From Escherichia phage ime: 64,000 nt of DNA. The stretch lies in the sequence record MN850576.1, one strand, 5' to 3'. Each line of letters begins with the position of its first letter. The stretch's first letter is position 1. Below are positions 3,162-46,245 of this stretch, piece after piece. Made by a program: the position numbers and the translations under genes. The notes beneath the pieces were generated by a model. That model saw nothing but the letters and a program-made list of their open reading frames with translations, did not search any database and was not told where the DNA came from.

Positions 3162-3695
3162 ATGACTTGTGCTAGAAAACCTGATGAACAACGTAACGCC
3201 TACGATGAGTATGTGACACCGGAGTGGTGTGCAGAAGGGCTGTATGACCTTATTCCGTTCCCAGAAGACTGGACCTACTTAGAGCCTTGCAGGAATAGTG
3301 CCTCAGGTGTGTTCTACTCCCGTATGCCGTTAGGATCTGCATGGGGAGAAATCCAAGAAGGTGTTGACTATCTGAATACAGAATACAACCATGTTGACTG
3401 TATTATCACCAACCCGCCGTACAGCCTGGCTCGTGAGTTTGTGGACAAGGCGTTGAAAGATGCCGACGTAGTTATTATGCTTTTGCGTCTTAATTTTCTG
3501 GAAAGCAAGGCCAGATTTGAATGGTGGCTTGATAATGCACCTACCACTGTGATCACAATATCTAAGCGTCCGTCATTCCAATCTAATGGTAGAACGGATG
3601 GGCAGGCATATGCATATTTTGTATGGGACAAGAAAAACCGTCTAGACTTGCCGCCATTTATGTGGTTGGCACCACCAGAGGCAGACTTGAAATGA
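3162..3695 (+). CDS. small DNA N6-adenine methyltransferase (phage Dam-like)
   Basis: NPPY catalytic motif (DCIITNPPYS); 177 aa; GGAG RBS. Confidence 0.6.
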   Translation: MTCARKPDEQRNAYDEYVTPEWCAEGLYDLIPFPEDWTYLEPCRNSASGVFYSRMPLGSAWGEIQEGVDYLNTEYNHVDCIITNPPYSLAREFVDKALKDADVVIMLLRLNFLESKARFEWWLDNAPTTVITISKRPSFQSNGRTDGQAYAYFVWDKKNRLDLPPFMWLAPPEADLK

Positions 3696-14558: not shown

Positions 14559-14720
14559 ATCTGGTGCACGATTGCATACCTTGGGCAGTTAATCTCATTA
14601 CAGAGCGTTTAAGAGCTCCCTACAAACAACTCCATATTTCGAGCGTAGCGAGAACGCACGTCCGTTTTGACCCAAATCACCATACGCTCGGATTTTAACC
14701 AAACCCTCGCGGCGTTTCTG

Positions 14721-14749
14721 TTGACACATTACCGATCCAGTGATAGTAT
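14721..14749 (+). promoter_or_regulatory. sigma70-like promoter (TTGACA-17-TAGTAT)
   Basis: Consensus -35 and near-consensus -10. Confidence 0.5.
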
Positions 14750-14867
14750 CCACACATAGTTTGTAGAATATGGAGTACACAATGAGAACATTGTCCGAAG
14801 TTTTAGTGGTGATCCTGATGATCATTACGTCCATAGCGGCTGTTGCCGGAATACTCACGGGTGGAAC

Positions 14868-15080
14868 ATGATAAACACACATGCATCTGAAGAGACATCC
14901 AAAGGAGTGACTATATGTCCCTTGGCTGAGCCAGTGAAAGAGGAAAACTTAGATTCTGAAGATTCTCCATCTTCGCTCCAGGTAGATCCTGAGGCTGATG
15001 ACCTAACGTGGGAAGACATCGTAGATATCTGGTTCTCTATTATGCCTGAGCACGAAGAGTTCAGGGGTGGTAGACTATGA
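14868..15080 (+). CDS. small highly acidic protein
   Basis: ORF track; D/E-rich; start context weak. Confidence 0.35.
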   Translation: MINTHASEETSKGVTICPLAEPVKEENLDSEDSPSSLQVDPEADDLTWEDIVDIWFSIMPEHEEFRGGRL

Positions 15081-15201
15081 AGCACCGAGCCCACACAGGT
15101 TCCTCATGCTAAAGCATGGCCTGAAGAGGCAAACGTGCATAATTCCTGTGCATCGGAACGTATAAAACCCTGTTCACACTCTCATTTCCAGAGGAGATTT
15201 C

Positions 15202-15417
15202 ATGAAGATAGAAATATTTGGTGGAGCTGACAACACTCGTGGCCTGATTTACCTTGAATTCGATGAATCATACCTGCCAGAGGTGTTAAATATGGACTCT
15301 GTTGCTGATGCTTTGGGAGTAAGTCCTAAAGATCTCTACTCTGGTGCTGAGATTGATGGTTGGGAGGAGACCATGAACATTGATTTCAGTGAAGTAGGTG
15401 ATGAACCACTGGACTGA
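15202..15417 (+). CDS. small acidic protein (family A-related)
   Basis: GAGGAGA RBS. Confidence 0.5.
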   Translation: MKIEIFGGADNTRGLIYLEFDESYLPEVLNMDSVADALGVSPKDLYSGAEIDGWEETMNIDFSEVGDEPLD

Positions 15418-15546
15418 CACACAATTAGCTGCCAGGCTAAAGTGCTGGAAGCGCACCTATAACACATCTTTCAACTAAATTTCCTACCACCACAATCACT
15501 TACCTCCCACACATGACTGTTTGCTTGTTTAGTGAGCAGTCATGCC

Positions 15547-15574
15547 TTGACATTCTTGCCTATCCTGATAAAAT
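15547..15574 (+). promoter_or_regulatory. sigma70-like promoter reading into ORF-free region
   Basis: TTGACA 15547-15552, TAAAAT 15569-15574; no ORF of 60 aa or more for ~2 kb downstream. Confidence 0.4.
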
Positions 15575-16992
15575 TAAGTTCTTCTCTTTTCTTTTACCGA
15601 GTAATTCGGGTTTTCTGTTCTCTTCGGTTTGAAGGGGTATGGAGATACACCTGAGTGAACAGGGTGAACAACCGAACCATTGGCTATGGCATTAGCATGG
15701 CGAAGCGGACGGGTGACGAAAGAGGGGCCGGAGGACACCAGTCACTGCCATATGGTATATGGGTGATAACCTGAAGAGTCTGAATAAGTGTTTAAGTACC
15801 AGTCAGAGGAAAAGGTGAATGGTAGCCGAAGGGGGAGGGGGGTTTCTTGTATCTTTAATTTGTATATTATGTATACACTTGTAAACCAATCTCATCTGAA
15901 TCTGTTTACCACACAAAGCGGATAGAGACAAATATCACCTATTAAACTTGAATTATTTATAGAAAATACCACAACACCACTTAAGTCTTTGATTTTACAC
16001 ACAAATCCTACAGATATTCAACCTCCATATTTAACATACTTGTAACATATTCCATACTCTACCTGTCTGATCAATCTACCCAACCACATCCTTCATATTT
16101 TCCCTGTCTGTACCACCCCTGCCCCGCCGGGAGTCCCGTCATATCTGGCTTTCCAGTAAATAGCACACCCACAAATATCATTGCCTGAAGAGGGTTTCAT
16201 CCCATAATACATGCCTTACCTGAAGAGCGCTTCATACACCACGTAAATTTTTTAATTGACCTGCAATTTTCCCGTCATGACCCCCCCCCTGCCCCGCCGG
16301 AGAGGTTGGCTTTTCCCACACAGACCTGAAGAGTCAGCCAGAAATATCTGAACAGGTCCAGTTCTGCCTTGTCATGAGCCGTAGCGACTGGAGTGCTGCC
16401 AGGCGGACGGAATGGGAATACTTCTCATTCTTATAATAATTCTCAAATATCGAGGCAGTGAGGCAAATTAATAGGTGAGGCCGTTCACACAGTGGCACAA
16501 CATTTGCAATCTATTTTGTGAGGGTGAATGAGAATACCTATCATTGTGAGAACCTTTATCATTACGGGCAATTTAACATAATACCCATTATGCGCACCAC
16601 TGGCGATACATACAGGGATTGATACCATGAGTTACAGTTTACGCATATAACAATCATATTTCTTACTATTTGTGTGGGATATAGTTAGCAACCAATAGAT
16701 TAGATATTGACCTACAGACTTCCAACCGTCTAGACGTCTAAACGCCCACACACCAAGGGTTATACATACATTACTGAATGTAAACAGGGCCGCAAAAATG
16801 CTACCATACCAGTTTGTAAATTTTTCATGCAGCACTTGACAAAGAGGAGAAAAACTTGTCTGACATAATGTGACCTAACTGACACAACATGACACTTTTA
16901 CACACCTATTAGTTTACACACTGGATTGTTTACATTCCTGATTGTTCACATGCTAACCATTTACATGATTGACTGTTTACACACCGATAATC

Positions 16993-17244
16993 AGCCATGC
17001 CATTCGTTTGCATGACAATAATTATACATGACAATAATCGCACTGATTATAATTAGCATGACATAATATAAAAGCAGGGCAACTATTAGCAGATCTATAG
17101 TTGCCTTGCTTGTTATGTCATGATTAACTAAATACAAGGCAACTATGATCTGATTAATAGTTTGCAGACAAACTATCACGGGGGTGATGGTTACTGCTTT
17201 TATATTATGTCGCGACTCCGTCGCGCCATGCCATTCGTTTGCAT
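16993..17244. repeat. 20-bp direct repeats (GCCATGCCATTCGTTTGCAT) flanking nested inverted repeats; candidate ori/pac
   Basis: Direct repeats at ~16993-17012 and 17225-17244; inverted-repeat arms 17060-17077/17194-17211; palindrome GGCAACTAT-N10-ATAGTTGCC 17078-17105; ATAGTTTG-CAGA-CAAACTAT 17157-17176. Confidence 0.6.
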
Positions 17245-17859
17245 AGTTGCCTTATTGTTACAGATAAAATAATTGTATTGTTAATTATTTCTTATCTTTC
17301 TATTAGTCATCTAATGATTTCAGTTAATATAGTAACGTACAGTAAACATTAGACGACTAAAGATTTCTCTGCTTATGGTAACCTAACGTGACAATTCCAG
17401 ACTGTTTACGAAAAATGTTGACACCTGGGCCGATTTATGTTATGCAGTTTACACGAATAATTATTTTATGCAGGTATTGACTATTCCGTTATTCTATGGT
17501 TGGAATAAATGCTTAGCAGGCTATAGAATGGCGAGCGTACGTAAATTCTGAGATCTGGCGGCTATAGTTATACTCGATTTTTCACGTAGAAAACGCTTTT
17601 GTAGCTATGTAAGTGTATGACTTATAAAGATTTTTAGTTGTTGACAAGATATTGGAGATGTGCATCAGATTAAATTTTGTGCAATAGCTACATTACGTGC
17701 ACTTTTGGAAGAAAAAACGTGTAAAAATGGCCCTGCTACCACACAATGAAAGATTATGCAATAGTTATTTTATATGTATATTTGTACAGTGTGTGGGATT
17801 AATGGCTAGTCAATTATTCCACTTGCCAGGTAGGGCCGTTTATGGTAGGAGAAGAGCAG

Positions 17860-17888
17860 ACAAAAAGAAAGGGGCCTTTAAGCCCCTT
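17860..17888 (-). terminator. rho-independent terminator (minus strand)
   Basis: GGGGC stem-loop; on minus strand followed by TTCTTTTTGT. Confidence 0.55.
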
Positions 17889-17906
17889 GATAATTCAGTT
17901 AAGAAA

Positions 17907-18326
17907 TTATAATGATTCGTATATTTCAAAAATCCGATTTGCCAGGTCGTTACGGTAGCGGAATTTTTCATCACGCTTGATCATTAAATCCTTATAGCCG
18001 TACTCTTTAAGCACTTCATTAACTTTATGGCGGCATACCTGCATATTATCTTGAGCGTCACCAATAAACTTGTTGCTGTGGTGCATTGCTTTAATTTCTT
18101 CTTCCAGGACCAGGGCAACTACCCGGACCGGATCAAGCTGGTAGGCGGTAACATCCATGCGGCATTGTAGACGGCTTTTAACGTCTGCCACCGGATATAC
18201 TGCAACCTCTTCCCCGTCAACATTAACAATAACTAGTTTACCATCGATTTCGAATCCTTTCGCCGCCGGACCGTGACAAAAAGCGTTATCAAAGCTATAT
18301 GCCGGATTATCAGATTTAATGTTCAT
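17907..18326 (-). CDS. hypothetical protein
   Basis: ORF track. Confidence 0.5.
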   Translation of the reverse strand: MNIKSDNPAYSFDNAFCHGPAAKGFEIDGKLVIVNVDGEEVAVYPVADVKSRLQCRMDVTAYQLDPVRVVALVLEEEIKAMHHSNKFIGDAQDNMQVCRHKVNEVLKEYGYKDLMIKRDEKFRYRNDLANRIFEIYESL

Positions 18327-18433
18327 GGTGTTTTTACCTCTTAGTTAATTTTCTTACAACTTCCCTTCAAAAAGAATATAGCAAAACTGCCGATCCCTGT
18401 CAACCAAGGATAGCATAATTTTTATGTGATCAA

Positions 18434-45903: not shown

Positions 45904-46245
45904 CTACTCAAGGTCTTCAGAGTCAAGCTCAAAAAGAATCAAACTGTGCATACCTGCAGAGAGATTAACACACCCTGCAACAATAAGGGTTTGATAGTAA
46001 GGTTCAGCACCCTCAATGTCTTCGTTAAAATCCACAACAAGGTAGTCACCTTTGTTAAAGGTGTATTTGTCCGATGTAAACGCAAAACCTGCCCAGTCCC
46101 CTACTGCAGGATCTTTATCAGTCACCTTTGTTAGCAGTAGATCTTTTTCACGAGATCTTTTAGTAAAATCGTGAATCACAACATCCTTCTCTTCAGGAGT
46201 CGGATTGCCACACACGTAGTTAACGATATTTCTCCACAAACTCAT
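45904..46245 (-). CDS. hypothetical protein
   Basis: ORF track; ATGA overlap. Confidence 0.5.
   Translation of the reverse strand: MSLWRNIVNYVCGNPTPEEKDVVIHDFTKRSREKDLLLTKVTDKDPAVGDWAGFAFTSDKYTFNKGDYLVVDFNEDIEGAEPYYQTLIVAGCVNLSAGMHSLILFELDSEDLE

Follow-up and report, generated by a model that had tools for sequence, protein, structure and literature searches.

The 64,000 nucleotides (nt) of Escherichia phage ime analyzed here (sequence record MN850576.1; hereafter the window) contain a long gap between two convergent gene blocks. The last gene on the plus strand ends at position 15417, and the first gene on the minus strand occupies positions 17907–18326. The subject of this analysis is the left part of the gap, positions 15420–16400. 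It had been singled out in an initial annotation, made from the letters alone, as a convergent region free of open reading frames (ORFs) with its own promoter and repeated motifs, and three options had been offered for it: a non-coding RNA locus, a packaging or terminus region, or a protein-binding array. By homology, positions 15418–17906 are the published non-coding region of about 2.5 kb that lies between convergent gene blocks in the genus Vequintavirus, and the window belongs to an rV5-like coliphage of that genus.

Positions 15400–17950 matched 121 GenBank phage records at 90–99% identity, all of them rV5-like coliphages of the genus Vequintavirus; 97 of the 121 spanned at least 80% of the interval, and the closest relative over it was Escherichia phage MaxBurger (97%). 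In a distant blastn search against GenBank phages, no homologue of the region was found outside Vequintavirus. The flanking genes were the same as in the relatives' records, and the non-coding regions of rV5, Murica, LL12, EdH4/HdK5, and Gotham share the locus, the convergent blocks, and the repeat described below, with no difference in kind. In the rV5 genome paper, the region is drawn as a grey "non-coding" box, and an origin was sought by skew analysis without success (PMC3606486). The non-coding length is given as 2,604 bp for rV5 and 2,554 bp for Murica (PMC4591320).

Mechanical calling yielded three ORFs in the gap (16632–16835 and 16991–17179 on the minus strand, 17697–17912 on the plus strand), all with GTG starts. 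Many relatives have these ORFs disrupted, and substitutions in them are not in excess at third codon positions; the gap is therefore truly non-coding, and the claim of an ORF-free convergent region stood. The two flanking genes are intact in every relative and do have the third-position excess, with substitutions by codon position of 40/32/146 and 74/19/197.

The physical ends of the virion DNA were placed on the window through its relatives. A 459-bp direct terminal repeat (DTR) corresponds to positions 16402–16860, where it is present in single copy. The DTR of LL12 had been mapped from reads by PhageTerm (PMC6658697), and that repeat (104,966–105,424 of the LL12 record) aligned to 16402–16860 with 95.4% identity and no indels. 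Records from several laboratories share these boundaries: the first base of EdH4, HdK5, ECP2309, bov10K2, bov11CS3, bov22_2, and bov25_3 corresponds to 16402, and the last base of ECP2303, ECP2309, and YN3 to 16860. In the EdH4 record, a sequence of 459 bp is repeated exactly at the two ends, the last 2,232 bp being collinear with 14603–16860 of the window and the first 1,485 bp with 16402–17887. Terminal repeats of 459 bp with one specific start sequence are described for Gotham (PMC7471380), redundancies of 458 bp for EdH4 and HdK5 (PMC6563267), and the termini of the bov phages were typed with PhageTerm (PMC8407724).

Since the mapped repeat and the record ends of the relatives fall at 16402–16860, positions 15420–16400 form, by homology, the final ~1 kb of the unique sequence, next to the right-hand DTR copy. 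The left boundary of the DTR lies 2 bp beyond this interval, which places the ends just outside it, and the packaging or terminus option was right for the locus. The left repeat junction reads ...GTGCTGCCA followed by GGCGGACGG, and the bases on its two sides (...CTGGAGTGCTGCCA and GGCGGACG...) are conserved among the aligned relatives. Both the non-coding locus and its terminal repeat had already been published, and the window is another member.

Conservation was mapped by aligning 17 relatives to positions 15000–18400 of the window. The least conserved DNA adjoins both repeat boundaries, with an indel-rich stretch at 16250–16400 on the left and short repeats of variable copy number at 16861–17050 on the right. 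Several relatives have small hairpin-containing insertions at ~16365, 16261–16282, and ~17040. The present genome lacks a 25–60-nt segment near 16365, just left of the terminus, that is carried by all 17 compared relatives.

The most conserved stretch of this alignment is not a gene. Positions 15500–15850 show 98–99.9% identity in the 17 relatives, against 87–97% in the neighboring genes. The stretch includes a predicted sigma-70-type promoter on the plus strand (15547–15574; TTGACA-16 nt-(TG)-TAAAAT), as had been noted at 15547. It agrees with the consensus at 11 of 12 positions, ties for the best score in 14.5–18.6 kb, and points toward the DTR, 855 bp off; the C-rich tract that lies between them may terminate transcription. 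The promoter hexamers are kept among relatives and the spacer differs (TTGACA-18 nt-TAAAAT in L006). A palindrome with 8-bp arms (CATGACTG ... CAGTCATG; 15512–15544) ends 3 nt before the −35 hexamer and could serve as an operator, or weakly terminate transcription of the operon upstream. Sigma-70-type promoters are reported in the rV5 paper (PMC3606486). A second near-consensus promoter of this type on the minus strand (18375–18403; TTGACA-17 nt-TATATT, with an upstream TG) matches P164 of the rV5 record, whereas that record has no annotation for the one at 15547, which is just as good.

Downstream of the promoter, positions 15581–15850 form an ultra-conserved, untranslated, G-rich block on the plus strand, a candidate non-coding RNA of ~270 nt. 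A pyrimidine tract lies at its 5' end, a small hairpin comes early in it (15597–15609), and a GGGGGAGGGGGG run followed by T's (15831–15849) lies toward its 3' end. As an intrinsic terminator (a G+C-rich hairpin with a T-run), nothing convincing was found on the plus strand of 15417–16402; the sole candidate was the weak 5-bp hairpin at 15597–15609, ~20 nt past the predicted start.

Comparison was extended to a divergent sister lineage, clade B, which consisted of five metagenomic sequences (the IMG/VR contigs L005/L025, L022, and L024, plus L181 and L186). Clade B is ~50% identical to the present phage over the promoter block as aligned, and shares only homology islands across the non-coding region. 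It keeps the promoter hexamers with another spacer (TTGCAA-17 nt-TATAAT), and a different palindrome (ATACCTAC...GTAGGTAT) stands in the corresponding position directly before the −35 hexamer. The untranslated block is also kept, its early hairpin having compensatory changes (CCGA...TCGG against CCAGAA...TTCTGG), and paired G-runs stand at the block end in both lineages. The order of elements is the same, a G-rich block and then a C-rich, G-poor tract, and the left repeat junction between CA and GGCG is retained.

The block was rejected as coding because the two lineages differ in it by indels of 1, 2, and 5 nt and its translated matches fall in several frames and on both strands. When five sequences drawn from both lineages were folded to a consensus, 78 pairs were found, 17 of which stayed paired although both partners had changed; 92% of cells were paired, compared with 45–53% in controls with the partners slid by 1–3 columns, with the caveat that pyrimidine and purine tracts pair in many registers. 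One consensus helix joins the 5' pyrimidine tract to the 3' G-runs. These compensatory changes suggest that the block may be a structured RNA. The search for more distant block homologues (two short patterns in viral contigs, a profile search of fetched loci, and one metagenome scan) returned mostly chance hits, and the wider searches added few further members, all of the same two lineages, so that the power of the covariation analysis stays low.

Nothing in the window matched Rfam at gathering score. The structured-RNA covariance scan that had been proposed as a check was carried out on 15000–18000 with Rfam 15 at permissive settings (E-value up to 10), and gave no hit inside 15420–16400. A hammerhead ribozyme was considered, as CUGAAGAG fits the CUGANGA core, and was rejected as there was no match to the Rfam covariance model; 6S RNA was rejected likewise.

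After the block, the composition of the plus strand changes. Positions 15850–16300 are C-rich, G-poor, and untranslated, a candidate Rho-utilisation (rut) zone. The C/G ratio across them is 1.8–7.75, the window-wide 99th percentile being 2.6, and the values are the most extreme in 64 kb; no other tract of the window is as rich in C and poor in G as 15926–16176. The plus strand had been described as G-poor from 15.85 to 16.9 kb, which proved correct, and extreme, for ~15.85–16.30 kb, and failed for 16.3–16.9 kb, where C/G falls to 0.6–1.6. The tract contains two C-rich boxes on the plus strand. Box 1 (CCACCCCTGCCCCGCCGG; 16113–16130) lies within an island of clade B homology (16102–16200, 75% identity), and box 2 (CCCCCCCTGCCCCGCCGG; 16283–16300) adjoins an indel hot spot. 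Two repeats in swapped order had also been described. Each does occur twice, CCCTGCCCCGCCGG at 16117 and 16287 and CCCGTCAT at 16135 and 16271 in the swapped order; the arrangement is not conserved, because the second CCCGTCAT lies within a 22-nt indel (16261–16282) common to just 5 of 18 genomes.

The third element is the 9-mer CCTGAAGAG. Five copies lie on the plus strand around the interval. The initial annotation had the count right and three of the coordinates off by 1–8 nt, the actual starts being 16184, 16219, and 16325. With one further copy on the minus strand at 46189, the window holds six, where 0.42 are expected by chance; six were reached in none of 100 shuffles, and the group is the top 9-mer cluster of any 1.3-kb span in the window. 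Copy 1 (15120–15128) lies in the intergenic spacer upstream of a 71-aa gene (15202–15417), and a copy is also found at the equivalent place in clade B contigs. Copy 2 (15770–15778) lies inside the conserved block and is the least constrained. Copies 3 (16184–16192), 4 (16219–16227), and 5 (16325–16333) lie 218, 183, and, in this genome, 77 bp left of the DTR, and all three are invariant in 18 of 18 aligned genomes while their flanks vary; copy 3 is kept in clade B. Clade B contigs have 3–6 copies each, on one strand except for one opposite copy in L005. The complete genome of MaxBurger has eight copies, seven on the strand corresponding to the plus strand of the window and five within 1.2 kb to the left of its DTR.

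These features make a protein-binding array plausible for CCTGAAGAG, which is invariant, confined to one strand at the locus, and kept in a divergent lineage. The copy at 46189–46197 (minus strand) is the only one outside the terminus flank; it lies on the other side of the terminus and on the opposite strand, and every copy in the window thus points toward the terminus. As the copies are few, this orientation may be due to chance.

The comparisons show where the interval lies relative to the termini (by homology to read-mapped relatives), that it carries no genes, that its elements are conserved and run in one direction, and that promoter, block, 9-mers, and base composition are under selection. 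We favor the interpretation, at a probability of roughly 0.55, that 15420–16400 is the right-arm control region of the concatemer junction, with a promoter, a Rho-type tract, and a CCTGAAGAG recognition array. Packaged genomes would have fixed ends and carry the direct terminal repeat of 459 bp. The host-type promoter at 15547–15574 would drive a conserved, untranslated, G-rich RNA of ~270 nt toward the repeat, and the C-rich tract at ~15850–16300 would load Rho and stop or thin rightward transcription before the junction. The three junction-proximal CCTGAAGAG copies would be sites for a protein that finds the junction, for example the small subunit of terminase, and the nuclease would be directed to cut between ...CCA and GGCG.... 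Transcription from the promoter, the involvement of Rho, and a role of the 9-mer in packaging are thus inferred. Rho is invoked partly because a clear intrinsic terminator is predicted for leftward transcription where the non-coding region ends on the right (17888–17869; 17869–17888, minus strand), and none for rightward transcription before the DTR; EdH4 has an annotated terminator at the equivalent site.

Several observations weigh against this interpretation. Homology alone places the termini on the window. The last 9-mer does not stand at a fixed distance from the cut, which is 77 bp away here and farther off in relatives with the extra 25–60-nt segments. The copy at 15770 is deleted in three of five clade B sequences and reads CCTGAAAAG in L239, and the gap of L007, a more distant relative, lacks a CCTGAAGAG array. 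Every copy is also sense to local transcription, which a role at the RNA level would fit equally well. The small terminase subunit is not annotated in the relatives examined. Single-sequence folding found the block no stabler than shuffled sequences in either lineage (z of −1.0 and −1.4), and the covariation comes effectively from two lineages, with the structure derived from the very sequences that were scored. In clade B, a gene for an HNH-type homing endonuclease on the opposite strand (~1900–2650 in the reverse complement of L005) separates the RNA block from the C-rich tract. With this insertion and the varying distance between motif and cut, the elements would not be parts of one spacing-dependent machine.

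The best-surviving alternative, which we regard as possible at a clearly lower probability, is a stand-alone regulatory RNA of ~270 nt with a job other than packaging, for instance in host or phage expression, whose nearness to the terminus would be incidental. The C-rich tract would then be its Rho-dependent terminator, and CCTGAAGAG a protein- or RNA-binding motif in the RNA. The extreme conservation of promoter and block, the compensatory changes between the two lineages, the C-rich, G-poor tract directly after the block, and the sense orientation of all 9-mers to local transcription agree with it, as does the 0.8-kb insertion that parts the block from the junction in the sister lineage. 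The proposal of a non-coding RNA locus is accordingly plausible for 15581–15850, which is conserved, non-coding, and changes in a compensatory manner, but Rfam holds no matching family and the folding energy is unremarkable. Neither a defined 3' end nor a terminator is visible. The best-conserved 9-mers lie 330–480 nt past the block, by the cut, and the copy inside the block is dispensable, which counts against a stand-alone RNA.

An origin of replication that is activated or primed by transcription was considered as well and is doubtful. The G-rich transcript would end at GGGGGAGGGGGG and the T's, form a stable RNA–DNA hybrid, and prime rightward synthesis into AT-rich DNA and through the repeat, helping to duplicate it. 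Comparable in principle are the T7 replication promoters, ColE1 RNA II, and the T4 origin transcripts, and phages with DTRs must duplicate the repeat at every junction. The strong predicted promoter, the G-rich strand (C/G 0.25–0.7) with its abrupt switch at 15850 to AT-rich, G-poor DNA, and the paired G-runs kept at the block end in both lineages favor such an origin, as do the genes of the phage for a primase-helicase of T7 type and a DNA polymerase of family A. However, 15420–16400 lacks DnaA boxes and iterons. The DnaA box TTATCCACA is absent from the window, with one relaxed match inside the interval, at 15993, and a scan of the interval for integration host factor (IHF) sites gave one weak match at 15982 and nothing convincing. 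The HNH insertion right after the block in the sister lineage would, moreover, displace any unwinding element.

A more origin-like unit lies on the other side of the repeat. Positions 16994–17244 hold a palindrome and iterons bounded by an exact 20-nt direct repeat (GCCATGCCATTCGTTTGCAT); within these bounds lie GGCAACTAT/ATAGTTGCC repeats, a perfect inverted repeat of 18 nt (17060/17194), and a hairpin (ATCAC-GGGGG-GTGAT). A second ultra-conserved island (17100–17250; 98–99.9%) was observed there, and the unit is a candidate origin or protein-binding site. Clade B has a unit of the same architecture with other repeats (CAGCGTTATAGT; GCGCCATGTTATCGTTGCAT), as would be expected if the repeats co-evolved with a binding protein. 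Three perfect tandem DnaA boxes (TTATCCACA) are present in clade B, at 3534–3573 in the reverse complement of L005 and also in L022 and L024, and probably lie inside the terminal repeat of that lineage. Between the DTR and this unit, and running into it, short direct repeats (TGACAC/TGACATAA and GTTTACA, the latter spaced by ~16 nt) form hypervariable arrays at 16861–17050, directly right of the DTR. Their copy number and content differ between close relatives, identity goes down to 0.62–0.75, and conservation breaks within ~5 nt of the repeat boundary. Right of its putative repeat, clade B has three copies of a different short repeat, AGGCATAC.

The two remaining explanations are weaker by far. 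Functionless decayed or spacer DNA between convergent operons, with a promoter match and repeats due to chance or slippage, is very improbable, since the block is more conserved than the neighboring genes, the 9-mer is invariant and found at 12 times the chance expectation, and both are kept in a lineage otherwise ~50% identical, even if the indel-rich 16250–16300 and 16350–16400, the variable arrays, and the non-conserved second copy of CCCGTCAT behave as unconstrained DNA would. Missed small protein-coding genes, such as the "novel gene" of Murica and JEP1_129, are the least credible of all: some records do call ORFs of 35–60 aa in the region, and G-poor composition gives long stop-free frames, but the called minus-strand ORF has no counterpart of at least 40 aa in the window, the ORFs of the gap are broken in many relatives without third-position bias, and the inter-lineage indels (1, 2, and 5 nt) and multi-frame, both-strand translated matches indicate conservation at the nucleotide level.

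The control-region interpretation was compared with known systems. In T7, short-repeat arrays flank the terminal repeat, and a promoter lies upstream of the right repeat. The present locus resembles the T7/T3 junction in its short DTR, whose ends are fixed, and in the short-repeat arrays that adjoin it (CCTGAAGAG on the left and TGACAC and GTTTACA on the right). A predicted promoter in the unique DNA of the right end points into the repeat, here of the sigma-70 type of the host, and the phage has a T7-type replisome. The two also differ in the length of the repeat (160 bp in T7, 459 bp here), they have no sequence similarity, and T7 is transcribed in one direction, whereas transcription here would converge on the junction from both sides. 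The annotation of MaxBurger, a complete relative, includes no gene for a phage RNA polymerase. Because of this and the host-type promoter, the likeness to the T7 junction is by analogy one of layout only, and not of membership. In T7, pausing of RNA polymerase at the concatemer junction recruits terminase (PMC3276506), and an origin, a pac site, and the terminal repeat are needed and sufficient for packaging (PMC13236587).

A bolder version, in which the promoter-driven RNA and the CCTGAAGAG array would constitute an undescribed terminus-processing system of a large myovirus dependent on the host polymerase, is in our view unlikely. Host RNA polymerase would transcribe toward the junction, as the polymerase of T7 itself does; the transcript, or an RNA–DNA hybrid ending at the G-runs, would mark the junction together with a motif-binding protein, and the marking would lead to cutting and to duplication of the 459-bp repeat.

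In lambda cosB and P1 pac, several copies of a short motif stand beside the cut and are bound by the small terminase subunit. Three invariant motif copies within ~220 bp of a sequence-specific cut are likewise found here. The ends, however, are direct terminal repeats instead of cohesive or headful ends, the copies run in one direction and lie on one side only, and CCTGAAGAG is a putative binding motif, with a single weak IHF-like match (15982) nearby. With Rho-dependent terminators, the locus shares a long untranslated, C-rich, G-poor RNA region after a promoter, longer than the minimum of at least 80 nt, and a position downstream of a convergent operon without an intrinsic terminator; it differs in that the tract also holds conserved motifs that a simple rut site would not need.

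The papers found on the rV5-like non-coding region state only that it lacks ORFs and where the repeat lies, and literature searches found nothing on Vequintavirus transcriptomics or on the function of the region. The search for the CCTGAAGAG 9-mer returned primer sequences only. What is new are the promoter-driven conserved block, the polar CCTGAAGAG array, and the C-rich tract, none of which was found described in the literature on the region.

Some observations concern the surroundings. The 139-aa gene at the right edge of the gap (17907–18326, minus strand) is missing in the close relatives EdH4, Alma, nomo, pangalan, and others, and is found at 81–91% identity in the far more divergent contigs L005 and L007. 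Its patchy presence suggests a mobile accessory gene; in PHROGs it belongs to a family of unknown function, and it has no Pfam domain. Eight small flanking proteins matched solely families of unknown function in PHROGs and Pfam scans, and no tRNA or tmRNA was detected in the window. Among the 121 GenBank records, 19 (MG0656xx, e.g., L012 and L013) were deposited as "UNVERIFIED: Campylobacter phage" and classified as Vequintavirus. They are 87–96% identical to the present E. coli phage across the region and are probably mislabelled or derived from contaminating coliphages.

Phages of the rV5-like group are among the coliphages most often isolated and are used in biocontrol and in therapy cocktails, and the recognition and processing of their genome ends have so far been unstudied. 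Placement of the termini identifies, by homology, the ORF-free region as the concatemer-junction region, and the comparison adds three concrete elements to it: the predicted promoter and its putative RNA, the one-directional 9-mers, and the C-rich tract. As the locus and the repeat had been published, the advance is incremental, useful rather than surprising to a specialist. It would be of use in phage engineering, for example in deciding where genomes may be opened or rebuilt and what a packageable plasmid would need, and in correcting annotations, as several records call spurious genes in the region.

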